Numbered from the stretch's first letter, positions 1,422-24,000 are shown. The stretch is DNA of 24,000 nt from Xylanimicrobium pachnodae JCM 13526 = NBRC 107786 (GCA_001592145.1 BCWJ01000020.1:52096-76095), one strand, 5' to 3'. Notes: generated by a model from the letters alone, not told the origin. A program made the numbers and translations.

Positions 1422-1724
1422 GTGGGGCTGAGGCGACGCGAGCCGTGGGACGGGGACCGGTCTCGGATCGAACGCGTCCCGCTGCGCGACTCCCCCGAGC
1501 AAGCCCCGGCCAAGCAACGCGCCGCCACCCCGGCCACCCGGCCCGAGACCCCGCTCCCGGTGCGTGTGTGGGTCACCCAGCGGCAGACCGGCGAGTTCGA
1601 AGCCAACGGGGTCGCCGTCGCGTGGACCACGCGGCAGGTCGAGGTGCGCTACATCGACCCGCACGGGCGCGAAGGGTTCGCGTGGGTGTGGGCGTCCGCC
1701 GTGACCCGCCGCGACGCCGACTAA
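1422..1724 (+). CDS. hypothetical small protein (start uncertain)
   Basis: The track ORF 1281..1724 overlaps the previous gene, so I trimmed it to the in-frame GTG at 1422, which follows a G-rich stretch. The C-terminal part (VRVWVTQRQTGEFEANGVAVAWTTRQVEVRYIDPHGREGFAWVWASAV) looks protein-like. The stop TAA 1722-1724 overlaps the convergent stop of the gyrA-like gene. No homology recognised. Confidence 0.35.
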   Translation: MGLRRREPWDGDRSRIERVPLRDSPEQAPAKQRAATPATRPETPLPVRVWVTQRQTGEFEANGVAVAWTTRQVEVRYIDPHGREGFAWVWASAVTRRDAD

Positions 1725-4510
1725 CCTCGGGCGCCTTGGCGTGGCTTCTGCGCCTTGGTGAGCAACGGGAGGCCCCCGAGGTTGGTCAACTGGGTGATCT
1801 TCTCGATCTGATCGGTGTGGTTGAACGTGTTCGCGCCCGTACCGGCCTTGCCCTGGCGGCTGATCGCGTCCACCTGGATCGTCTTGACCGCGCCGTCCGC
1901 GTATACCGCCGAGATGTACGGCGACTCGACGTACGCGACGTAGACCAAGGGGTCTTCCTCGGGGACCTTTGTGCCCTGAATCTTCGTCCGTCGCGTGGCC
2001 ACGGCGAGGCCGTCACCGGGCATGATCTTCGCCGCGCCGGACGCGTACACCAGCACCAGGTCGCGCGTGATGACCTCGCTGTAGACGCCGGTGAACACCC
2101 CACCCTCGGCCTCGGCAGCACCCCAGAAGAACTCCAGGGTGCCGTCGGCGAGCATCTGTACTGCGGCGTCGTTCTTGTCACGCGGCGACGGTGTGGTGCC
2201 GCGCTTGGCGGTCCCGCTGGTCGGGTCGGTGACGTCCTGGAACCGCTGCGTCTCCTTGAGCACCGGAAGGTCCTGGATGTTGAACTTGACGTGCTCGCGT
2301 GTCAGGTACTCGCCCCGGGCGTCCTTGTCGATGACGTAGACGGCGTCCACTCGGTCGCCGTCCTTCTCGTAGAAGGTTTGCGCGCCAGCGCCGGACGCGC
2401 TGCCCTGGAACTTGATCGCGTCGAGCGGTAGCCGCTTGAACAGACTGCCCTTGACCACGACCACGTCCTGCTGCTCGAACGCCTCGGGGGCGTGGATGGA
2501 GACGTGCACCAGCGGGTCGGACTCGAACTTGGACGCATAGAAGTCGACCTGCTTGCGCAGCGTCTTGGTGATCAACTTCGACCCCGACGTGGCGAACCGC
2601 TTGGCCAGGCCGAGCGACGACACGGTGAACATCTGGGTGCCCTCAGCCTCGATGTGCTTCCGAGTCGTCATCAGCAGGACCGACTCGGATGCACTCAGAC
2701 CGTTCTCGGCGAACACCGAGACCATGTTGTCACCACGATCGGTCGACCTCGCGGAATGCTTGCGCAGCCGGGCGAACGGCACCTGGTACTGGTTCCCGGC
2801 GTCGGTGAAGAGCAGCAGCAGGTTGTCGTCCGTGGTGTCGAGCACCTCGATCACGTCGTCGTCAGACACGGTGCGGCGGTCGGTGTACTTGATGTACCCG
2901 TACTTGTCGCGGGTGACGGTCACGTCCGTGACGATCACCTGCTCCTTGAACGACCTGAGTGTGTCAGCACCGAGCAAGGTGGTCTTGCGCTCCCCGTACC
3001 CGGCCTTGGTGAGGTCCTTGATCGCCGCGCCGAGTCGGTCGGTCAGGACTCGCACCCGCTCGTCAGGGTCGGTGATCTTGATGTCGGCGTCAGCGATGGT
3101 CTGTTCGAGGTCTCGCCTCTCCTCGATCATCTTGGCCGCGTCGATCCGGTTCAACTGGTAGACGCGCATCATGGCCAGGGCGTCAGCCTGCGCCTCGGTG
3201 TACGAGAACTCGGCCTTCTGCCCGGGAACTCGCTTGCTGCCGCGCAGCACCTCGATGAGGTCGGCCTTGCCGTCGGTGTTCTGAGCCGCGTGGATCAGGG
3301 CATCCAGGTTCGCCGGGACGGTGACCAGGGCGTTGACGATCTCAAGTCGAGCGACCGCCTTGCGTCGGATCGCCTTGAACTCCCGCACGATCAGCGTGTG
3401 CTGGAACGCTGCGAACGACTCCAGGTACCCCATCAGGTTGAACACCCTGGGCGTCTTGCCGTCCAGGGCCATCCACTGCAACGAGTACGTCTGCCGCAGG
3501 TCGGTCTTGGTGAGCAGCATCAACCTGGCCTGCTCGTGGTCGAACCCCGGCTGCAAGGTCACTTCCAGCCGCACCCGGTTGGCCGCGATGTCTTCTGGGC
3601 CGGTGAAGTCGTCAATCTCCTTGATGCCACGCAGCCGGTTGTCAAAGATCATGTCCTTGACCTTCTCGACGTACCCGCTCACAGCCCCGGCCATGTTGTA
3701 CGGAACCTGGGTGATGACCAGGCCGTTGGGACTGTCCGGGCTGTCGATGATGACGCCTTCGTTCTGGAGCCGCCCCACTCCGGTGGAGTAGTACTCGTCC
3801 AGGTCCCCGATGAGAACCCCGCCCGTCGGCAGGTCAGGCCCCCCGAGGATGCCGAGTGCGGTCGCGAGGCGCATCTTCGGGTTCTTCAGGTACTCGCGCA
3901 GCAGCCTGGTGGCGTCGACCGGGTTGTGCGGGGCGATGGCGGAGGTGAACCCGACGGCGATGCCCGTCTTGACGCCGTTGATCAGCAGCATCGGCAACTG
4001 GACGGGGAACACCTTTGGCAGTTCAAGGGTGTTGTCGTAGTTCGCCTCGTAGGGCACCAGGTCCTTGGACAGCCGGTCCACGAACGCCTGCCCGTACTCG
4101 GACAGACGCACCTCGGTGTACCGAGGCGCAGCCGAAGCGTTGCCGGAGATGTCATGGAACGAGCCGCGACCGTCGATCATCGGTAGATGGAAGGTGAACG
4201 GTTCGGTCAGGTACACCATCGAGGAATACGACCCGGCGTGCGGGTGGTACTTGCCCATGACGTCACCCTCGACCTGCTGCGCCTTGCGATGTTTGGACGT
4301 CGGGGCCAGTTTCATCTGGTGCATCGCGAACAGGATGCGGCGCTGCACCGGCTTGAGACCGTCATCAAAGCGAGGGATCGCACGGTCGGTGGCGACAGCG
4401 ATGGCGTAGTCCAGGAACTCTTGCCTGTTGACCCCGACGATGTCGGTGTCCTCGACGTTGTCCAAGGTCAGGTCGATGACATGCTGGCTGGTCTTCGGCG
4501 TACGGGGCAT
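1721..4510 (-). CDS. type IIA DNA topoisomerase subunit A (GyrA/ParC-like), divergent
   Basis: GyrA/ParC hallmarks: DGLKPVQRRILFAM, GKYHPH, active-site tyrosine context AAPRYTEVRL, PDLPTGG, and a long C-terminal repeat region. I prefer the ATG at 4510 (1 nt after the gyrB-like stop) over the track's TTG at 4531. Confidence 0.9.
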   Translation of the reverse strand: MPRTPKTSQHVIDLTLDNVEDTDIVGVNRQEFLDYAIAVATDRAIPRFDDGLKPVQRRILFAMHQMKLAPTSKHRKAQQVEGDVMGKYHPHAGSYSSMVYLTEPFTFHLPMIDGRGSFHDISGNASAAPRYTEVRLSEYGQAFVDRLSKDLVPYEANYDNTLELPKVFPVQLPMLLINGVKTGIAVGFTSAIAPHNPVDATRLLREYLKNPKMRLATALGILGGPDLPTGGVLIGDLDEYYSTGVGRLQNEGVIIDSPDSPNGLVITQVPYNMAGAVSGYVEKVKDMIFDNRLRGIKEIDDFTGPEDIAANRVRLEVTLQPGFDHEQARLMLLTKTDLRQTYSLQWMALDGKTPRVFNLMGYLESFAAFQHTLIVREFKAIRRKAVARLEIVNALVTVPANLDALIHAAQNTDGKADLIEVLRGSKRVPGQKAEFSYTEAQADALAMMRVYQLNRIDAAKMIEERRDLEQTIADADIKITDPDERVRVLTDRLGAAIKDLTKAGYGERKTTLLGADTLRSFKEQVIVTDVTVTRDKYGYIKYTDRRTVSDDDVIEVLDTTDDNLLLLFTDAGNQYQVPFARLRKHSARSTDRGDNMVSVFAENGLSASESVLLMTTRKHIEAEGTQMFTVSSLGLAKRFATSGSKLITKTLRKQVDFYASKFESDPLVHVSIHAPEAFEQQDVVVVKGSLFKRLPLDAIKFQGSASGAGAQTFYEKDGDRVDAVYVIDKDARGEYLTREHVKFNIQDLPVLKETQRFQDVTDPTSGTAKRGTTPSPRDKNDAAVQMLADGTLEFFWGAAEAEGGVFTGVYSEVITRDLVLVYASGAAKIMPGDGLAVATRRTKIQGTKVPEEDPLVYVAYVESPYISAVYADGAVKTIQVDAISRQGKAGTGANTFNHTDQIEKITQLTNLGGLPLLTKAQKPRQGARG

Positions 4511-4511
4511 C

Positions 4512-6533
4512 TCAGTTCTCGACCTTTGCAAACTCGGCGTTCTCCATCAGGAACTCGCGGCGCTGTGGCACGTCGGTTCCCATGAGCAGTTGCATGTTCT
4601 CGGCGGCGTTGTCGAAGTCGTTGGCGACGTACCGGTACAGCCTGCGGGTGCCTGGGGTGTTCATCCACAGGCCGGTCTTCTCGTCACCGATCTCTCCGAG
4701 ACCCTTGTTACGCAACGTCTCGACGATGCTCTTGCCGTGCTTCTCGACGATCGCGTCCTGCTCGGCGTCGTTGTAGGCGAGTACCGTGCTCCCGCCCCTC
4801 AGGACGTTCTCGTACAGGGGTGTCATCACCCGGTACAGGTGTCCGTTCTGGATCAACTTCGGCATGTACTCGAAGAAGAACGCTTGCAGGAGCATCGAGA
4901 TGTTGGAGCCGTCAGGGTCGGCGTCGGTGGCGATGATGACCTTGTCGTACTTCAATTTGGCTTCGTCGTACTTGGCGCCGATCCCGCACCCGAGCGCGGT
5001 GACGATGGTGGCGATCTCGGCGTTCTTGAACAGCCGGTCAGGGGTGGTCTTGAGCGCGTTGATGATCTTGCCGCGCAGCGGGAACACCGCCTGGAACAGT
5101 CCGTCGCCGTTCAATCGCATGCGGACCAGCGAACCGGCGGCAGAGTCCCCCTCCACGATGAAGATTTCAGCGGACTGAACGCCGCGCTCGCCGCGCAGCC
5201 TCTTGGCTGGCTTCAACTTCTTGGAGACTGCCGCCTTGTTCTCCTTCGTCTCGACCTTGATGGACGACAGGTCGGAGAACTTCTTACGGTCGGCGGCACG
5301 CGCCAGTGCCTGCTTGATGATTTTCTCGACGTCGCCGATCGCCTTGTCGAAGCAGAACATGCCCTGCTCCTTGACGACCGCGGTCACAGCCTGCTTGGCG
5401 AACGTGTCCGACAGTTGGTCCTTGGTCTGCGAGGAGTACGTCGGGGCGGTGTGCAAGATGGATACCACGGCCAGCATGCCGGGCTTCAGGTCGCGCTGCT
5501 CGATGGTGTCCTTGGACAAGTTGAACTTGCGGGCGTAGTCATTCATCAACTTGGCGATGCCCGTGTTGAACCCATCTACGTGGGTGCCGCCCGCAGCGTT
5601 GTAGAGCACGTTCGTGAACCCGGTCTGAGCGATGTCGGGCCCGTTGGACCAAGCCACGGCAATCTTCGCCTGGACCGTCTTGTCGCCGTCAACGAATGAG
5701 CCGTCGAACTCGTGAATGTCCGTGATCAGCGAGTGACCGTCCGGCAAGTGTGTGGCCAGGTCGCAGATGTACTCGCGCAGCCCGCCAGCCTTGTGGATGG
5801 TGACGGTTTCCCCGGTGGCTTCATGCGTGACGTGGTAGGTCGCCTGGGAGTTGAGGTAAGCGAGCCGGGTCAGGTCGTGGACGATGAAGTCGTAGTCGAA
5901 GGTGGCGTTCTCGAAGCAGTCCTCGGAGGGGAGGAACCTGATCTCGGTGCCGTGGTAGCCGGGTTCGGCTCCGTCGGGCAGGTTCTTGCCAGTCTGCTCC
6001 TGGGCGCGGTATGCGCCCTTGGACGTCAGTGCAACCTCCGCAGTGCCCGGCTCGCCGGTCTTCTCGTCGAGCCCCAGCCGGTCGTGGAAGAACTTCCCGT
6101 CGGACCAGATGCGCAGTTCAACCCAGTCGGACAGTGCGGTGATCGCCTTGGCACCCACACCGTTGGTTCCGGCAGACACCGAGTGCGCGTCCTCGTAGTG
6201 GGAGCCAGTGTTGGGGATGGCGATGGCTGCGCGCGCCATCGGCATGAGGTAGTCATCCCCGCACTGAACACCTCGGTCCTTGTCCGCGGTCGCCATGACC
6301 TGGGTTGGCATGCCGCGACCGTTGTCACGAACCGACAAAGACCCGTCAGCGTGCAGGGTGAACCAGGCGTCGGTGGCGAACTGGTTGATGATCTCGTCGT
6401 TGGCGTTGTCTCGCGCCTCGCGGTACAGGTGGTAGGCGTTGGCGTTCGACCCGATGTACATGCCGTACCGGGTGCGGATGTGCCTGAGCCCGGAGAGGGT
6501 CTTGATCTCCTGGCTGGTCTGCGTGATGGACAA
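4512..6533 (-). CDS. type IIA DNA topoisomerase subunit B (GyrB/ParE-like)
   Basis: GHKL ATPase motifs (LSGLRHIRTRYGMYIG, RDNANDEI, DNGRGMP, GTNGVGAKA). TOPRIM motifs (FIVEGDSAAGS, PLRGKIINALK, IIATDADPDGSNIS). TTG start with GGAAG/AGGA 9-15 nt upstream. Sits directly upstream of the subunit A gene. Confidence 0.9.
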   Translation of the reverse strand: MSITQTSQEIKTLSGLRHIRTRYGMYIGSNANAYHLYREARDNANDEIINQFATDAWFTLHADGSLSVRDNGRGMPTQVMATADKDRGVQCGDDYLMPMARAAIAIPNTGSHYEDAHSVSAGTNGVGAKAITALSDWVELRIWSDGKFFHDRLGLDEKTGEPGTAEVALTSKGAYRAQEQTGKNLPDGAEPGYHGTEIRFLPSEDCFENATFDYDFIVHDLTRLAYLNSQATYHVTHEATGETVTIHKAGGLREYICDLATHLPDGHSLITDIHEFDGSFVDGDKTVQAKIAVAWSNGPDIAQTGFTNVLYNAAGGTHVDGFNTGIAKLMNDYARKFNLSKDTIEQRDLKPGMLAVVSILHTAPTYSSQTKDQLSDTFAKQAVTAVVKEQGMFCFDKAIGDVEKIIKQALARAADRKKFSDLSSIKVETKENKAAVSKKLKPAKRLRGERGVQSAEIFIVEGDSAAGSLVRMRLNGDGLFQAVFPLRGKIINALKTTPDRLFKNAEIATIVTALGCGIGAKYDEAKLKYDKVIIATDADPDGSNISMLLQAFFFEYMPKLIQNGHLYRVMTPLYENVLRGGSTVLAYNDAEQDAIVEKHGKSIVETLRNKGLGEIGDEKTGLWMNTPGTRRLYRYVANDFDNAAENMQLLMGTDVPQRREFLMENAEFAKVEN

Positions 6534-6623: not shown

Positions 6624-7274
6624 TCATCGGCGCTCGCCCACGGCCAGGACCGGGGCGACCAGGGTGGCCGCCATCTCGCGGTCCTGGGCGGGGATCTTGC
6701 CCGCCTGTTCGTAGTCGGCGCTGATGTCTGCCGCGTCCCACGTCGGCAGCGGTGTGGCGTGAGGGGCGCACACGCAGCCGCGGGTTCGCCGGGTGCGCTC
6801 CGGGCAGCCGCACCCGGCGGCGGGCCACTGCGCGTCCAGGTCGGCCTGCAACGCGTCCACGCTGGCGTACGCGAGTCCGTCCACGTCCCATAGGCGCCCG
6901 TCTGGGGTGCGCCCGTACGCGTGGCTCCACTCCACCAACGGGTTCCCGTCCGCGTCGTCCTCCCCGTCGACCGGTTCGTAGCGCAGCACCACGTCCCCGC
7001 CGGTCGCGTCCGCGACCGCGAGAGCCAGGGCCAGGCAGTGACCGTTGCGGTACGCGTGCCGGGCGTTGTCGTCGAGCAGTCCGGGTGTCACGGTCACCGC
7101 GGTGATCGGGTCGCCGTCCTCGTCGCACACCGGGTCGAGCCAGTTGTCGATCAGGGCCAAGGACGCCGGACCGGTCACCTCCCCGCCCAGGTCGTACCCC
7201 GGCGCGGGACCGCCCCCGGTCGCGTACCGGCCTGCGCCGTCGTGCAGGGCCCCGCGGATGTCGATCGTGGTCAC
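6624..7274 (-). CDS. N-terminal-module family protein A (unknown C-terminal body)
   Basis: GTG start. N-terminus MTTIDIRGALHDGAGRYATGGGPAPGYDLGGE matches the 12-member module. The CCGGACAAG core ends 8 nt before the start, with no Shine-Dalgarno. Codon bias is good. Confidence 0.7.
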   Translation of the reverse strand: MTTIDIRGALHDGAGRYATGGGPAPGYDLGGEVTGPASLALIDNWLDPVCDEDGDPITAVTVTPGLLDDNARHAYRNGHCLALALAVADATGGDVVLRYEPVDGEDDADGNPLVEWSHAYGRTPDGRLWDVDGLAYASVDALQADLDAQWPAAGCGCPERTRRTRGCVCAPHATPLPTWDAADISADYEQAGKIPAQDREMAATLVAPVLAVGERR

Positions 7275-7278
7275 ACCG

Positions 7279-7291
7279 GGTACTTGTCCGG
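7279..7291 (-). promoter_or_regulatory. CCGGACAAGTACC motif, copy 1 (upstream of gene A)
   Basis: The plus strand reads GGTACTTGTCCGG. The core CCGGACAAG is exactly 8 nt from the GTG start at 7274. Confidence 0.6.
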
Positions 7292-7324
7292 CGAGCGGTC
7301 ACCTGCTTCGCCGAGCGGTGGAGG

Positions 7325-7344
7325 CCCCGTCCTTCAGGGCGGGG
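7325..7344. repeat. hairpin CCCCGTCC-TTCA-GGGCGGGG (putative right-end structure of the IscB element)
   Basis: 8-bp stem (one G-U/mismatch position) with a 4-nt loop, 50 nt downstream of the iscB stop. It is near-identical to the hairpin at 9108-9127. Confidence 0.5.
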
Positions 7345-7393
7345 AGGAAACCGCGTCGAGACGGTGTTCGGAACGTGGGTTGGTCGTTCTGGT

Positions 7394-8746
7394 TCACTTC
7401 TCGTCTCCGGTGAGGGTTGGTGTGGTCTGGTAGGTGTAGCCATCGCCGCGTTGGAGCAGCCGGACGTGTTTGTGGTTGATGCCCTGGATGGTGGTGTGGG
7501 CGGTGGTGATGTTGAAGGAGCCGGTGGCGCGTACCGCGACCCGGCCCACGTGGGTGCCTTGCTTCTTGCCGGTGGGGACGACGGCGCGTACGAGGTCGCC
7601 GGTGGCGTATCCGTGGTGGATCTTGGTGCGGTTGACCTTGGCTGGGGTGCCGTCTTTGGTGGTGCGGGGGAACCCGTACTTGTCGACGTTGACCCGCCGG
7701 TAGCGGCCCCGTCCGGCGCAGGTGACCACCAGGGTGGTGGCGGGCCACCCGGTGACACCTGTGACGTCTCCGACGCACAGGGCGTCCAACGCGTGCGTCT
7801 TTGGCACGGCGTGGACGGTGCGGTTGTACTTGGTGCGTCCGCCCGTGGACGTTTTGACCGGGAACCCGCGTGCTTCGATCGCGTGGGTTAGCGCCCACCT
7901 CGTGGAGTTGACGGCTGCCGCGTCCCGCAACGGGCGTTTGAGCCCGGCCTTGACCCGTGCCAGCCGGGCAGGGTCGCAGGCGAGGAACACCTCGACGGGT
8001 TGTGCGTCCTTGGCCTGGTTGCAGGTCACGCAGGCGAGCACGAGGTTGGAGACCCGGTTGGACCCGCCCTTCGACCGGGGTCGCACGTGGTCGATGTTCA
8101 GGGGCACGCCGGTGGCGTCGCAGTACACGCAGGTGTGTCGGTACTTGGTCAGAAGGTATTCGCGGGCTTCGAACCCGGCCAGGGTGCCTTGCTGGTACTC
8201 GACCCCGCCGATTTCGGGGTTCTCCATCGCTTGGGTGTCGAAGCGGACGGCTTCAACGTGCACGCCAGTAATGGGTGCCCATCTGGTGAGTCGGTCCACC
8301 CAGGACAGGGTCGTGACCACCCGGTGCCGGGTGGACGGTGCCAGCCACGTGTTGAGCCCGTCGACGGGGTGACGGCGTCGGTTGTCGAACCTCGGTGCGC
8401 GGTAGCGCAGGTTCCGCGACCGGCGGCCCCGGCGTAACTGTGCGCGGGAGGTCATCGCATTCTTGATGGTCAGGCCCCGGTGGACCAGGTCGATCAAGGT
8501 CACCGCTGTGCGTTCACCGTCCCGGGTGGTGGTGAACAGGGCCAGGCCGGAGTGTTTGCTGCCGGGGTCGATGCCGAGTTCCACACCATCGACATCGATC
8601 CCGGGGGTGGTCGCGTCCACGTCGACCAGGCGGATGATGAACGGGACGACCCGGTGGACTCGGGCGCGTCCTTTGCGCAGCAGTTCGCGTGCGCGGGCAG
8701 GACGGGTCGGCATCAAGGGCCGACCGTGACGGTCGAGCACGAACAC
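7394..8746 (-). CDS. iscB: IscB, RNA-guided RuvC/HNH nuclease (RRXRR-HNH family)
   Basis: PLMP domain (FVLDRHGRPLMPTRPARARELLRKGRA). RuvC-I (GIDPGSKHSGLALF). Arginine-rich bridge helix (RRGRRSRNLRYRAPRFDNRRR). HNH (CVYCDATGVPLNIDHVRPRSKGGSNRVSNLVLACVTCNQAKD). RuvC-III (HALDALCVG). C-terminal TAM-interaction-like region (GDLVRAVVPTGKKQGTHVGRVAVRATGSFNI...QGINHKHVRLLQRGDGYTY). Start placed at the GTG at 8746, just before the PLMP domain. The track's extension to 9079 is low-complexity and likely non-coding. Confidence 0.85.
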   Translation of the reverse strand: MFVLDRHGRPLMPTRPARARELLRKGRARVHRVVPFIIRLVDVDATTPGIDVDGVELGIDPGSKHSGLALFTTTRDGERTAVTLIDLVHRGLTIKNAMTSRAQLRRGRRSRNLRYRAPRFDNRRRHPVDGLNTWLAPSTRHRVVTTLSWVDRLTRWAPITGVHVEAVRFDTQAMENPEIGGVEYQQGTLAGFEAREYLLTKYRHTCVYCDATGVPLNIDHVRPRSKGGSNRVSNLVLACVTCNQAKDAQPVEVFLACDPARLARVKAGLKRPLRDAAAVNSTRWALTHAIEARGFPVKTSTGGRTKYNRTVHAVPKTHALDALCVGDVTGVTGWPATTLVVTCAGRGRYRRVNVDKYGFPRTTKDGTPAKVNRTKIHHGYATGDLVRAVVPTGKKQGTHVGRVAVRATGSFNITTAHTTIQGINHKHVRLLQRGDGYTYQTTPTLTGDEK

Positions 8747-9107
8747 GCGCCCGACAAGTAGGGGACGGTCACCCGTCCCGGCTCCCGCACCCACCGGGGA
8801 CCCGGCAGGTGCGGGGGTGACGCCGACAGCAGCAGGAGAACTGCTACCGGTCTCCCCTCGACCCTGTTGACCGCTGCGGTGCCCCGGCATAGCCGTGGCG
8901 CCCGTGCCCCGTTTCGTGGATACCCCATCCGTGTCTGCTGGCACAGGTTCGAGAGCGGCGGGCTGAGGAAGCACCCGACGGTCGATCTGCTGTCGTGCGG
9001 TCAACGCTGTCACCTCCATCTCCTTGTCTCTTGGTGACGTGGTCTGGTCAATCAACCCCTGAAGTTCTCCAGGGCTCAACGGTCAGCGAAACGCCTCCCG
9101 TGACAAG
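8747..9107 (-). ncRNA. candidate IscB omega RNA (scaffold) region
   Basis: The location directly 5' of iscB and abutting its start is where IscB omega RNAs are encoded. The in-frame translation is G/A/P-rich low complexity. Local stems are visible, for example GGGACGG-TCAC-CCGTCCC at 8762-8779 and CCCTG-N8-CAGGG at 9057-9074. The exact ends are unknown. Confidence 0.4.
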
Positions 9108-9127
9108 CCCCTCCCTTCAGGGAGGGG
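9108..9127. repeat. hairpin CCCCTCCC-TTCA-GGGAGGGG (putative left-end structure of the IscB element)
   Basis: Perfect 8-bp stem with a 4-nt loop. The loop contains the present stop codon of gene B (TGA at 9117-9119 on the minus strand). Partner of the hairpin at 7325-7344. Confidence 0.5.
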
Positions 9128-9968
9128 TGATTGACTCGTCCTCGTACAGGCGGGCGACCGGGACGCGGTACTTGCGCGCGTACAGGCTGTCCCCGTCGTC
9201 GTACTCGACAACCACATACCCGGCCTTCTGTGCGACGCCCACGACGGTGACGGACATGCCGTCGAGTTCGTCGTTGCCGGGCAGGTCGAGCCGGTAGTCC
9301 TTGCCGACCATCGACGCGCGCGGCGGGCGCCGGTGCACGGTCTGCGGGCGGGTCGGCGGCACGTAGTCCTCGTTGCGGGTCCAAGTGATCACGGACTCCG
9401 GGTCGAACCGGCCCGGCGAGCAGGCGTTGCAGGAGTACTGCCGGTTCGCGGTCCTGCGGTTGCGCCCCACCTGGTGCCCGTTGGGGCAGGTGCCGACCCA
9501 GCGGGCGGCGGGCTTGGGCTGGCCGTCGAAGCAGCGTTTCCCGTCCCCGCCCAGCCCGATGGCGGTGCGCCGCCACTCCTCGTCGTGCCCGTGCCCGGGA
9601 CCGGTCAGCGCGTGCGCGACCTCGTGGGCGATGGTGTCGCGCACCTTCGCGTCGTCGTGGAGCAGGGTTAGGTCGTGAGACATGGAGATCGTGCGGTCCC
9701 GGTACCGGGTCTGCCCGGCCCGGGCCACCGCCGCGTCCCACTCGAACCGCCACCCGGCCAGGCCCACGTCGGTCAGCAGCCGCTCCGCGTCGGCGCGTAC
9801 CGCGTCCAGGCGTCGCTGCGGGTCCTCCGCGGGCGGGTACCCGTCCACCACCCCGACTGGGGCGACCGGTGCGGGCGCCGACAGGTCGTACCCGGCGGAT
9901 GAGCCGCCGGTGGTCGCAAACCGGCCCGCCTGGTCGTGCACGGCCCCGTTGGTGTCGATCGTGGTCAT
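9117..9968 (-). CDS. N-terminal-module family protein B with SprT-like zinc metallopeptidase domain
   Basis: ATG at 9968. N-terminus MTTIDTNGAVHDQAGRFATTGGSSAGYDLSAP. SprT-like core WRFEWDAAVARAGQTRYRDRTISMSHDLTLLHDDAKVRDTIAHEVAHALTGPGHGHDEEWRR (HExxH), followed by a Cys-rich ribbon (CPNGH...CNACSPG). The track ORF extends upstream over gene C and was trimmed. The last codons (ITPP*) lie in the hairpin of the IscB element. Confidence 0.8.
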   Translation of the reverse strand: MTTIDTNGAVHDQAGRFATTGGSSAGYDLSAPAPVAPVGVVDGYPPAEDPQRRLDAVRADAERLLTDVGLAGWRFEWDAAVARAGQTRYRDRTISMSHDLTLLHDDAKVRDTIAHEVAHALTGPGHGHDEEWRRTAIGLGGDGKRCFDGQPKPAARWVGTCPNGHQVGRNRRTANRQYSCNACSPGRFDPESVITWTRNEDYVPPTRPQTVHRRPPRASMVGKDYRLDLPGNDELDGMSVTVVGVAQKAGYVVVEYDDGDSLYARKYRVPVARLYEDESITPP

Positions 9969-12473: not shown

Positions 12474-12486
12474 CCTACTTGTCCGG
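12474..12486 (-). promoter_or_regulatory. CCGGACAAGTAGG motif, copy 3 (upstream of gene E)
   Basis: Core lies 17 nt after the gene F stop and 42 nt before the GTG at 12435. The leader ends in CCGGAGCATCAC. Confidence 0.6.
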
Positions 12487-21221: not shown

Positions 21222-24000
21222 TCAGAACACGAAGTCCTCGTAGTTGTCGTCCGGGTTACTGACCGGCGGGGCGGGCACCGGGGCGGCACGCGCGGCGTCA
21301 GTAGCCGGGGCGGGCCCGTCGGACGGTTCCTCGACGTCCCAGTCTGGTTCGCCGTAGCCGTCGTCCACGGGGGCGGGCGGCGGGGTGGCGTCGACCCCGA
21401 TCGTGTCCAGGAACGTGTCCAGGTCCGGTTCCGGTTCGACTGCTCGGGGAACCCCGCCCTCGATGCGTAGGTCGTCCAGGGCTTGCTCCGGGAACCCGGA
21501 CGGGTCATCGGAGGCGGTGGGGGCGTCGTCCAGGTCCAGGTCGGTCAGGTCCAGGCCCAGGTCGCCCAGGTCCAGGTCGCCCAGGTCCAGGTCGCCCAGG
21601 TCGAGCACCGTGTCGTCGGGAACGGGCTGTCCCTCCCCGCCGGATGTCTCAATGACGGTGCCCTCGGCCACCAACTCCTGCTCGGCGGCCTTCGCCCGCA
21701 CCTCTTCAACCATCGCAGGCAGGTCCAGGGCGTCCGCGCGAGGGCGCAGCCGCGCCGCCAACTCGGCGCCGAGCGTGTCCTGCATCGGGGCGACGAACCA
21801 GGACTGCACGGCGACCGCCCCGGCCTCGGACCGTTCGAAGATGGCGCGCCCCTTGGGGACCGCGTCCCCCAGTTCGGGGGCGTTGACGGCGTCCTTGAGC
21901 GCCACCTGCTTGTCCCCGAACGTGGCCTTCCCGACCAGCAGCCGCATCCCCAACGACGCCTTCATCGCCGACGCGTTCGGCAACGCCTTCATCATGTCGG
22001 CGGTCAGGCGCTGCGCACCGAGCAGGACGGAGAACCCGGCGGCGCGCGCCTTGGTCACCAGTTGGGTCACCGCGGACAGGATGTCCTGGCGGGCGATGAA
22101 GTCGGCCATCGCCTCGTTGAACACGGCCATCGACTCGGGGGTCTCGACCTGCGGTTTGCGCGGCTTGTCCGCGCCGATCAGACCGTTGAACTCGTCCAGG
22201 AACACGATCGCGTGCGGCGGGCGCAGGTCGGCGGGCAACTCGGTGTACTTCGACAGGCCGAGCCGCCCCATGAGCGACTGACGGCGCTCGTACTCGGCCA
22301 CGCACGCCTTGAGCATCACCGCGACCTGCTCGACGGTGGTGGCGAACCCCTTGACGAACGGGCGGGCGAACACGAAGTCGGCGGCCTGCTTCTGCGCGTC
22401 CCCGACATACACCTCACACCCCTTGACGATCGCCCCGTACAGGATGCCTTCGAGTGAAACCGAGTTGTGGGTGGGGATGAACCCCTCGACCAGGAACAGG
22501 TGCTCGGGGTGGTCCACCTTGATGCATCGCATCTCGACCGGTTCCCCGATGGTGATGTCGGTGATGTAGTTCCACTGCTGCGTCTCGCGCAGGGTGCCGG
22601 ACGGTGCCACCCGGGCGGCCTTGCGCGGCAGGCGGAAGACGGGCAGGTCGGTGGTGAACGTGAACCGGTGCTTGCCGGAGCACGGCACCCGGTTTCCGTT
22701 CGCGTCCAGGTAGTGGCTGGGCTCGTCGGACACCTCGGACGCCTTGATCCCCAGCGAGCGGACCAGTTCGAGCACCTGCACCGCCAGGTCGCGGTGCACC
22801 CCGCCCTGCGTGAACTCGGAGTGCCCCTGGCGGGTGTCGATGGTCCCGTCGGTGTCCATCAGGCCCTGCAGCAGGGCGAGTCGCTGCTCCGTGCTGGCGC
22901 GCAGGTAGACGGCGGGGATGTGCTTGTTGCGCAGGACCCCGGCGGCGCGCAACTGGCGGGTCAGGCCGGGTACCGCGATGACGTAGCCACAAGAGTCGAT
23001 GCGGTGGGGGTCGTATCCGCACGCCCGCAAGTTGGCCATCATGTCGGTCATGTCGTCGGTGCCGGGGTTGGCGGCGATCTGCCCGCCGTTCGTGGCACCG
23101 TCGCCGAGCCAGACGCCGAGGACGTACGGGTCGATCGGGAGGTCCGCGTCGGGGCCCTCGATCGGCGCGGTGACCCGGACCGCCCAGTTGGCGTGCGAAC
23201 CACCGCGGGCACGCAACGTCTCGAACATCTCCCGGGTCGTCACAACCCGTTCCGCCGCGCGACGCGTGTTGTGGTCGGCACCGGCCTGGGCCTCCAGCCG
23301 TTCGGCGAGCAGCACCAGCACCTCATCGACAGGGTACACGGTCATGGTGCACACGCTCGGGACCCGCTTGCGTTCGATGCCGTACTTCGTGGCCCGGTTG
23401 TTCAACCGGCCCGCGACCACATCCGGGGGCAGCGCGGTGATACCGAGCACCTCGGCAACCTCAGCACCCGCCAGCCACCGCCCGCGCAACACCTCGACCT
23501 GCGCGGCGGTCACGTCCACCCCCGCGAACCAGTTCCGTCGCCGTGACATGGCCAGCGACGCGATGAAGTCGTCCATGTTGTACGCCCACCGCTCGCCCTG
23601 CGGCACGCTCGCCCGCGTGCCCAGGTGCTTGATCGGCAGGTGGTACGCGTGCAGCGCCGTCTCGTGGTACCCCGCCAGGCGGGCGATCACCATCAGGGGG
23701 GCGCCGTGCCCGAAGTGCTGCGCGGCAACCTGGCGCAACCCCGCCGCCTTCTTCATCAGCATCTGCGCCTTCGGGGTCTTGACGCCGCGCCGGGATACGC
23801 GAGCGCGCCCGTCATAGTCGGACGCCTTCCACAGGTGCCCGGCGTCGGCGACGACCTGCTGCCCGTCGCTGAACGTGACCGTGTACCCCGGCGCGGTGAA
23901 CACCTCGGAGAACCCGCGCACCGTGGTCACGGAGCCGTCCGCCGCGTACACCGTGTCGCCTACCGCCAGGTCCCGGTTGCGGGCCCACCCGGTTGGGAAC
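21222..24000 (-). CDS. FtsK/SpoIIIE-family ATPase (TraB/EccC-like), intein-containing, 5' end outside window
   Basis: The frame stays open to the window edge (..FPTGWARNRDLAVGDTVYAADG). After the intein the extein resumes S-VSLEGILYGAIVKG, consistent with a split GKS P-loop. It then shows Walker B-like HAIVFLDEFNGL and ARAAGFSVLLGAQR, typical of FtsK/SpoIIIE, followed by a long acidic C-terminal tail. Confidence 0.85.
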   Translation of the reverse strand, partial: FPTGWARNRDLAVGDTVYAADGSVTTVRGFSEVFTAPGYTVTFSDGQQVVADAGHLWKASDYDGRARVSRRGVKTPKAQMLMKKAAGLRQVAAQHFGHGAPLMVIARLAGYHETALHAYHLPIKHLGTRASVPQGERWAYNMDDFIASLAMSRRRNWFAGVDVTAAQVEVLRGRWLAGAEVAEVLGITALPPDVVAGRLNNRATKYGIERKRVPSVCTMTVYPVDEVLVLLAERLEAQAGADHNTRRAAERVVTTREMFETLRARGGSHANWAVRVTAPIEGPDADLPIDPYVLGVWLGDGATNGGQIAANPGTDDMTDMMANLRACGYDPHRIDSCGYVIAVPGLTRQLRAAGVLRNKHIPAVYLRASTEQRLALLQGLMDTDGTIDTRQGHSEFTQGGVHRDLAVQVLELVRSLGIKASEVSDEPSHYLDANGNRVPCSGKHRFTFTTDLPVFRLPRKAARVAPSGTLRETQQWNYITDITIGEPVEMRCIKVDHPEHLFLVEGFIPTHNSVSLEGILYGAIVKGCEVYVGDAQKQAADFVFARPFVKGFATTVEQVAVMLKACVAEYERRQSLMGRLGLSKYTELPADLRPPHAIVFLDEFNGLIGADKPRKPQVETPESMAVFNEAMADFIARQDILSAVTQLVTKARAAGFSVLLGAQRLTADMMKALPNASAMKASLGMRLLVGKATFGDKQVALKDAVNAPELGDAVPKGRAIFERSEAGAVAVQSWFVAPMQDTLGAELAARLRPRADALDLPAMVEEVRAKAAEQELVAEGTVIETSGGEGQPVPDDTVLDLGDLDLGDLDLGDLGLDLTDLDLDDAPTASDDPSGFPEQALDDLRIEGGVPRAVEPEPDLDTFLDTIGVDATPPPAPVDDGYGEPDWDVEEPSDGPAPATDAARAAPVPAPPVSNPDDNYEDFVF
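21531..21605. repeat. tandem CAGGTC-based repeat (15-bp unit GTCGCCCAGGTCCAG x3 plus degenerate copies)
   Basis: Read directly from the sequence. It encodes LDLGDLDLGDLDLGDLGLDLTDLDLDD in the tail of the FtsK-like protein. Confidence 0.75.
22464..24000 (-). mobile_element. intein with LAGLIDADG homing-endonuclease domain (N-terminus outside window)
   Basis: Hint-like N-terminal segment (LAVGDTVYAADGSVTTVRGFSEVF). Two LAGLIDADG motifs (LGVWLGDGATNGG and LLQGLMDTDGTI). C-terminal splice junction FLVEGFIPTHN|S, with Asn codon at 22464-22466 and +1 Ser at 22461-22463. Confidence 0.8.

Follow-up and report, generated by a model that had tools for sequence, protein, structure and literature searches.

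In the described IscB-encoding elements of the IS200/IS605 family, the omega RNA is bounded by the right end (RE) and a transposon-adjacent motif (TAM) abuts the left end (LE) downstream of iscB; in the case of GstIscB, this LE-abutting TAM is TTCAT (Meers et al., bioRxiv 10.1101/2023.03.14.532601). At positions 3 and 5, the TAM is distinct from the transposon-encoded motif (TEM); the spacing between motif and DNA guide is flexible, iscB elements prefer the orientation of the upstream gene and about 98.5% of the iscB genes have no tnpA nearby (bioRxiv 10.1101/2023.03.14.532601). Here, we analyzed a stretch of 24,000 nt from Xylanimicrobium pachnodae JCM 13526 = NBRC 107786 (GCA_001592145.1, BCWJ01000020.1:52096-76095), which is called the window in the following. 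Positions 7303-9135 (1833 bp) very probably represent an intact-looking, non-autonomous insertion sequence of the IS200/IS605 family, which carries iscB together with an omega RNA and abuts the last codon of a gene termed gene B. This kind of element is already known; the element in the window is a new member, and a compensated variant of the TAM is its sole mildly unusual trait.

On the top strand, the locus reads TAM GTCAC (7298-7302), LE hairpin (7325-7344), iscB and the omega RNA gene, both in antisense, RE hairpin (9108-9127) and TTGAC (9131-9135). The top strand of the transposase TnpA is the plus strand of the window; this strand and the hairpin at 7325-7344 as the left end were assigned because of the published convention that the end carrying the omega RNA is the right end. 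The two ends (CTGCTTCG.. and ..TGATTGAC) have no terminal inverted repeats, the flanks (..GAGCGGTCAC| and |TCGTCCTCGT..) have no common direct repeat and thus no target-site duplication, and the hairpins lie 22 nt (LE) and 8 nt (RE) inside the inferred ends. An initial annotation of the window had proposed an IscB/omega RNA element of the IS200/IS605 type, and the IscB gene, a match to the HEARO RNA family and the subterminal hairpins at both ends agree with this proposal.

Results

An IscB gene and its omega RNA

The iscB gene occupies positions 7394-8746 on the minus strand and starts with GTG at 8746. Its product of 450 aa is built of the PLMP/RuvC-I, arginine-rich bridge, RuvC-II, inserted HNH, RuvC-III and C-terminal domains, matches RRXRR (6.4e-64, residues 3-189) and HNH (7.8e-12) in Pfam and has IscB chains as top matches in the PDB (1e-26 to 1e-43), which confirms the identity that the initial annotation had given to the gene between the hairpins. 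D60, E165, H220, N243, H318 and D321 were invariant in an alignment (A1) of 16 sequences including the window protein. By its sequence, the protein is a member of the IscB (obligate mobile element-guided activity, OMEGA) family of RNA-guided nucleases with the catalytic residues present. A database protein (P0001) is 100% identical to it, and the nearest other IscB (78% identity, locus L012) lies within a decayed element. In L012, the omega RNA (123-363; HEARO 56.7 bits) is shortened by an internal deletion that takes away the 3' arm of its conserved hairpin and the stem that follows, and the left-end hairpin is absent downstream of position 1806; the open reading frame (ORF) of this decayed copy is intact.

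The omega RNA scaffold (8747-9135, minus strand) lies immediately upstream of iscB on the same strand. It was detected by the HEARO model (Rfam RF02033; 74.5 bits, E 1.2e-14), which matches with model positions 1-211 from 9135 to 8846 and ends 100 nt before the iscB start codon. The 5' arm of stem P1 is located at 9135-9128 and is followed by the hairpin at 9127-9108, which corresponds to model positions 9-29. This hairpin is consequently also a part of the omega RNA and not only a DNA end structure, as had been assumed in the initial annotation.

The two hairpins and the right end

The left hairpin consists of CCCCGTCC-TTCA-GGGCGGGG (7325-7344) and the right hairpin of CCCCTCCC-TTCA-GGGAGGGG (9108-9127). 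As noted before, they are nearly identical and share the same loop; a degenerate pattern for both occurs only at these two sites in the 24 kb, with 0.26 sites expected. Both fold as predicted (z-score of the RE fold: -3.4), and on the plus strand the LE hairpin has the full 8 bp with one G-T pair, whereas on the minus strand it is broken by a C-A mismatch. Hairpins at like positions relative to iscB are kept in elements of Pseudomonadota, Nitrospirota, Thermodesulfobacteriota and viral contigs, and in the related locus L013 the stems of the two hairpins are identical. The earlier comparison with the subterminal hairpins of IS200/IS605 elements was therefore appropriate. A CRISPR-DR9 match in Rfam (7320-7351, plus strand, 21 bits, E 0.17) turned out to be the left-end hairpin, without any repeat array.

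For the right boundary, the omega RNA was most informative. The 5' arm of P1, GUCAAUCA (9135-9128; also written GTCAATCA), pairs with UGAUUGAC near 9050, and over 12 loci this stem covaries (AAU/AUU, AAC/GUU, AGAC/GUCU, GUAACGG/CCGUUAC). The HEARO match starts at the same G in ten relatives, of which the closest score 86-87, and no conservation was found 5' of the first G of P1 in the 12 loci. Because the P1 arm covaries and conservation stops there, the right-end boundary is, as read from these alignments, 9135|9136 and the element takes in 9128-9135. The RE (9103-9135, plus strand) thus comprises the DNA guide ACAAG (9103-9107), the hairpin, the trinucleotide TGA and the TEM TTGAC (9131-9135). 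Among 43 distinct relatives, the TEM is TTGAC in 27 and CTGAC in nine (together 36/43), a G precedes the hairpin, and positions -1 to -5 outside the motif show no conservation.

The left end and the TAM

The LE (7303-7393, plus strand) consists of a variable linker (7303-7319), the DNA guide GGAGG (7320-7324), the imperfect hairpin (7325-7344) and a conserved stretch up to the iscB stop. An LE hairpin with a TGAA or TAAA loop is conserved after iscB in elements of unrelated hosts, and we collected such ends from species genomes, plasmids, phages and 80 viral contigs, resulting in 37 distinct hairpins preceded by CCTC. In 35 of these 37 ends, ATGA (in iscB sense) was found 11-38 nt past the hairpin (mode 17-20 nt), and an A abuts the hairpin on the transposase strand. 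On that strand, the motif reads TTCAT in 14, ATCAT in nine, GTCAT in six and CTCAT in six ends. The other two ends, from the window and locus L130, have GTGA (NTCAC) and a G as the hairpin-abutting nucleotide, and mixed cases were not observed. Loci added after the scan contributed a third G/C case (L208) and two further A/T cases (L207 and L127). All three NTCAC ends read CAG|GTGA in iscB sense. In addition, three copies of one left end (two in L148, one in L149) are identical through ..caagactgATGA, which means up to ATGA, and divergent beyond.

Because of the distribution of the motif over the 37 ends and the agreement in CAG|GTGA, the best boundaries predicted by this comparison are a TAM GTCAC at 7298-7302 (plus strand) and position 7303 as the first base of the LE. 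The reverse complement of the TAM, GTGAC, includes the inferred native stop codon of gene B (TGA 7299-7301). At both ends of the window element, the nucleotide before the hairpin is G, opposite to C5 of the motif. GTCAC and TTGAC differ at positions 1 and 3, whereas the NTCAT and TTGAC of the relatives differ at positions 3 and 5. Of a pairing of TAM and TEM according to the IS608 rules, only the pairing of the last position was used with confidence.

Tentatively, the window element can be placed in a small set of IscB elements that switched from NTCAT to NTCAC (GTGA for ATGA), with the motif, the DNA-guide nucleotide for TnpA (A to G) and possibly also IscB varying together; we regard such a coordinated switch as a real, albeit rather doubtful, possibility. 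The compensatory change arose independently, because the closest relatives of the window element (72-73% aa identity) are of the A/T type. Column 348 of IscB (in GRG-R-Y; codon 7703-7705 in the window) is Arg in all three NTCAC elements, and it is Ser in about 33 NTCAT elements and Arg in two (L207 and L127). Arg at 350 is also common to the window and L130. A simple rule in which Arg348 reads the G of GTGA was rejected, as L207 and L127 combine Arg with ATGA, and what is left is an association only.

Some further observations were made around the left end. The 7-mer CGAGCGG (plus strand; CCGCTCG on the minus strand) occurs twice in a distance of 13 nt, at 7312-7318 in the conserved left-end block and at 7292-7298 against CCGGACAAG, a motif of the gene junctions that is described below. 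Likewise, GCAGGTG of 7300-7306 recurs at the junction at 12486, and both repeats may be due to chance. In L122 (1300-1360; Ralstonia phage Adzire) and L148 (450-510), each element has a solo second left-end hairpin with TAM at a distance of about 0.9-1 kb upstream of its omega RNA, which may have been left behind by a tandem or neighbouring element or be a derivative resembling palindrome-associated transposable elements (PATE).

Gene B and the insertion site

Gene B (9117-9968, minus strand) currently encodes a SprT-like protein of 283 aa with the N-terminal module of the surrounding gene array and ends with ..YEDESITPP*. In agreement with the initial annotation, its TGA (9117-9119) falls in the loop of the RE hairpin; the last five codons and the stop (SITPP*) are element sequence. 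To look at the gene end in silico, we compared three excisions. Removing 7303-9135 (1833 nt, 611 x 3) yields ..CTG TAC GAG GAC GA|G TGA (..ARLYEDE*), removing 7312-9135 (1824 nt, 608 x 3) yields ..YEDERSR*, and removing 7325-9127 (1803 nt), as suggested in the initial annotation, yields ..ESITSTARRSR*. All three run in frame to the TGA at 7299-7301, and other offsets lead to no stop or to GTGTGA at the start of the next gene. This TGA is most likely the native stop of gene B, and this part of the earlier proposal is robust because all three excisions use it.

The position of the stop also fits the organization of the gene array. The junction motif CCGGACAAG is present in eight exact copies, all on the minus strand; the copy at 7283-7291 lies ahead of the next gene of the array (6624-7274, minus strand). 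In the seven junctions without an interruption, the upstream ORF stops 4-17 nt before the motif, and the TGA at 7299-7301 lies 7 nt before the copy at 7283-7291, exactly as had been described. An insertion of the element at the 3' end of gene B, already part of the initial annotation, is thus supported.

In the most probable arrangement, the insertion would have taken place between the second and third base of the last sense codon of gene B (GA|G TGA), with the first G of the element restoring the codon. It would have added SITPP to the protein and changed nothing else, and the native stop would lie inside the reverse complement of the TAM. Without the element, the junction between gene B and the next gene would read ..GAGGACGA|GTGACCGCTCG... 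An overlap of the TAM reverse complement (ATGA or GTGA) with a codon was also seen elsewhere: it contains the start ATG of the downstream gene in L013 (2329) and L014 (2507), the stop of iscB itself in L121 (4268-4270) and L122 (3908-3910) and the native stop of gene B in the window. Such overlaps may help to explain the precise placement of elements between co-directional genes.

Copies of the element and alternative explanations

Several points weigh against this interpretation. The insertion and its exact ends were deduced by comparison with relatives of 45-78% identity. An empty site was not found in the searchable data, and a search of 5.8 billion proteins gave no full-length homologue of gene B, its next best relative sharing 48% identity in the SprT domain only. 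No second copy was detected either: the one further hit, L011, represents this very locus in a draft assembly, with 99.9% identity and the same flanks. The HEARO score of 74.5 is under the Rfam gathering score of 83, yet within the range of the relatives (57-145 bits). The frame agreement at gene B is weak evidence, since one of three frames keeps the TGA at 7299-7301 and a second frame would also be plausible at the GTGTGA start of the next gene. The TAM scan looked for RTGA, and the invariance of the TGA core is therefore partly built in. At the left side, the similarity to the closest relatives that retain the LE (L013 and L014, both 71% aa identity, and L063) extends from the iscB stop through the hairpin to ..CCGCTCG and ends at 7312/7311 and not at 7303. 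Finally, the junction at 12486 shares GA-GCAGGTG with 7309-7300, which would favour host sequence from 7309 on; we ranked this match below the agreement in CAG|GTGA, but it is not negligible.

Further searches for copies gave the same picture. Exact look-ups of IscB and gene B returned the same locus only, a megablast search of 7250-9200 against phages and plasmids had no match, a scan of genome contigs for sister copies reached 55% identity at best, and a first scan of viral sequences with exact peptides had no match. A left-end DNA pattern used for a metagenome scan was too degenerate: of the loci examined, L062 (on the contig of L013) and L063 alone turned out to be genuine ends, the others being G+C-rich sequences matched by chance. 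A presumed multi-copy family, P0076 on seven contigs, proved to be one orthologous place in seven genomes. No homologue of the Y1 transposase TnpA was found in the 24-kb window by tblastn and Pfam searches, and for the window the earlier description as a non-autonomous element without TnpA gene holds. In L013, the IscB element of 71% identity is followed 1.3 kb downstream by a pair of an IS605-type TnpA (Y1_Tnp) and a TnpB (3594-5234), and this TnpA could be a source of transposase in trans for that genome.

These results leave some room for the idea that the element is a stranded, immobile copy without a cognate TnpA in the genome, whose IscB is kept for the benefit of the replicon, for example by cutting and converting related plasmids or phages that lack the insertion. 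The single copy in everything reachable, the window without TnpA and the small fraction of iscB genes with tnpA nearby, as mentioned above (Meers et al., bioRxiv 10.1101/2023.03.14.532601), would all fit, and so would the plasmid- or phage-like character of the window (PHROG matches, a presumably intein-bearing terminase/FtsK-like gene and gyrase-like genes) together with the frequent occurrence of IscB relatives in phages and plasmids. Nevertheless, we consider this scenario unlikely, as the gene, the RNA, both ends, TAM, TEM and DNA-guide nucleotides are intact and mutually consistent, in contrast to the decayed L012. It is also compatible with the insertion at 7303-9135 and does not exclude it, because homing by cut-and-copy needs no TnpA.

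Considerably less likely is the same element with an LE starting at 7312, an off-consensus TAM TTCGC at 7307-7311 and a gene B that ended with ..YEDERSR* at the same TGA. In fact, 7312 was our first estimate of the left boundary, taken from the end of the similarity to L013, L014 and L063, and was revised to 7303 after the motif had been found in the 37 ends. Besides this loss of similarity and the sequence shared with the junction at 12486, the in-frame excision of 7312-9135 is in line with the shorter version, and the G/C covariation does not separate the two models, as position 5 of TTCGC is also C. However, the TCA core is present at the expected distance in 35 of the 37 scanned ends and in L207, L127 and L208, and CAG|GTGA is common to the window, L130 and L208. 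Moreover, neither the length nor the sequence of the TAM-hairpin linker is constant among the relatives, so that a loss of similarity is expected there, and the match to junction 12486 is shifted by 1 nt. Taken together, this argues for a left boundary at 7303.

Very little speaks for the version of the initial annotation, in which the element is the hairpin-to-hairpin unit 7325-9127 and gene B formerly ended with ..ESITSTARRSR*. Joining 9128 to 7324 in silico indeed leads in frame to ..EDESITSTARRSR* with the stop at 7299-7301, as had been stated. In contrast, 9128-9135 forms the covarying arm of P1 in the omega RNA and is kept in every relative, 7311-7324 is conserved with relatives from other hosts, and the hairpins of IS200/IS605 elements are subterminal, with cleavage occurring at TAM and TEM. 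The hairpin edges are therefore not the ends, since the scaffold extends to 9135 and the left side to about 7303; the boundaries and the hairpins do not coincide, and in this narrow sense a condition that the initial annotation had named as refuting it applies. The restored tail has to be corrected to ..YEDE* (alternatively ..YEDERSR*), as 21 nt of the proposed joint are element sequence. The insertion had also been called recent, which is not supported; the element looks intact. That the hairpins are host terminators or repetitive extragenic palindromic (REP)-like repeats of the gene array with iscB just in between can practically be dismissed, because both travel with IscB across unrelated hosts at the same placement relative to the gene; although both G+C-rich stem-loops sit at gene ends, no other array junction has such a hairpin, neither of the two is followed by a T-tract, and no terminator-like site was detected in 7100-9400.

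Predicted guide and proposed mechanism

Position 1 of the scaffold is at 9135, and therefore the guide of the omega RNA is predicted to begin at 9136, directly 5' of the scaffold, and to extend to about 9151 (minus strand). With the guide length of 16 nt from published IscB work, the corresponding stretch of about 16 nt is GCCTGTACGAGGACGA, derived from the last codons of gene B. The initial annotation had expected the guide near 9128-9147, but 9128-9135 belongs to the P1 arm.

The following steps were deduced from the published model. The omega RNA would be transcribed co-directionally with gene B, together with or from this gene, and probably by read-through, as a promoter-like site was not detected. 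Because of this direction of transcription, the 5' guide would correspond to the last ~16 nt of the gene B sequence (9151-9136). A TnpA acting in trans could excise the element as single-stranded DNA, with TAM and TTGAC pairing with the nucleotides at the feet of the hairpins, and a scarless donor joint would read ..GCCTGTACGAGGACGA|GTGAC. IscB with its omega RNA would then recognise the match to the guide together with the 3' motif GTGAC and cut, and the site would regain the element by recombinational repair from a copy that still has it. Because GTCAA and not GTGAC comes after the guide match, the occupied site would be spared from cutting.

Neighbouring genes in the window

The window has a G+C content of 65-75%, and nearly all real genes are on the minus strand. 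Between 6624 and 20553 (minus strand), at least ten consecutive, otherwise unrelated genes open with the same module of about 30 residues (T-I-D-x-x-G-x-L-H-D-x-x-G-x-[YF]...AAGYDL). The starts of the array genes lie near 7274, 9968, 10969, 12429, 12920, 13765, 15304, 16552, 18291, 19419 and 20547. Eight of them have an exact CCGGACAAG in front, and most have no match in Pfam or PHROG. The 5' module and the motif resemble a shared leader or targeting signal, or else a recombination cassette.

An ORF of 909 aa (21222-23951, minus strand) has LAGLIDADG/homing endonuclease matches in Pfam at residues 345-413, also matches the large terminase and FtsK/SpoIIIE families of PHROG, and is probably an intein-bearing DNA translocase or packaging ATPase. 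At 1721-6533 (minus strand), a GyrB-like (673 aa) and a GyrA-like protein (936 aa) are encoded as a pair. Their clearly lower G+C content (0.61-0.65 versus 0.69-0.75 in the rest of the window) points to a type II topoisomerase that was acquired separately and resides on a plasmid- or phage-like replicon.

Discussion

Our findings do not alter the current understanding of IscB systems. Their value is a practical one: they delimit an IscB element of a high-G+C replicon correctly, locate its TAM, its two ends, its omega RNA and its guide, and correct the annotation of gene B, whose five final codons are foreign. Over about 40 elements, the rule for the pairing of TAM and DNA guide in Geobacillus extends far beyond this genus, including a compensated T-to-C variant, which could help in choosing compact editors with another motif requirement. 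The TAM switch, if true, would be a natural and repeatedly evolved, coordinated re-targeting of transposase and nuclease, and it would point to a residue that determines the TAM.

How does the element compare with known systems? With regard to the RNA, the full length of the HEARO model (RF02033) is matched, and the RNA has P1 as well as the CCCC..GGGG hairpin with its TGAA-type loop, both showing covariation. The window RNA differs in that its score is below the gathering score, that the second stem is enlarged by 40 inserted nt and that there are additional insertions. With OgeuIscB (Altae-Tran et al. 2021; 7UTN, 7XHT), the window protein shares the family, the domain order, the upstream omega RNA with a 5' guide and the motif on the 3' side. 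In contrast, the sequence alignment covers residues 111-326 only (E about 1e-26), the C-terminal and presumably TAM-reading domain is too diverged for alignment, and, with about 390 nt between 9135 and the start codon, the omega RNA of the window is longer. The motif pattern of OgeuIscB is reportedly NWRRNA, and the TGA core of the window fits this pattern.

In common with IS608 and ISDra2, which encode TnpA and TnpB, the window element has subterminal imperfect hairpins, lacks inverted terminal repeats and target duplication, is inserted 3' of a short motif and has a guide RNA nuclease aimed at the donor joint. It differs in that the nuclease is IscB (RuvC and HNH) and not TnpB, that the TnpA gene is absent from the window and that the guide RNA is located 5' of the gene, in antisense orientation relative to the transposase strand.

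The most similar arrangement is that of ISGst5, the IscB-encoding IS605-family element of Geobacillus stearothermophilus (bioRxiv 10.1101/2023.03.14.532601). The window element differs from it by its host, a high-G+C actinobacterial-type replicon, by being known from sequence data alone, by the TAM GTCAC (C for T at position 5) with the compensating G in the LE guide, and by having neither a known cognate TnpA nor known sister copies. Nevertheless, both elements are non-autonomous, co-oriented with the upstream gene and organized in the same order of TAM, LE hairpin, antisense iscB and RE-bounded omega RNA. In both, a five-nucleotide TAM and TEM are read by DNA-guide nucleotides beside the hairpins, and TTCAT as TAM is even shared between ISGst5 and relatives of the window element; positions 3 and 5 distinguish it from their TEM TTGAC, as has been reported for ISGst.

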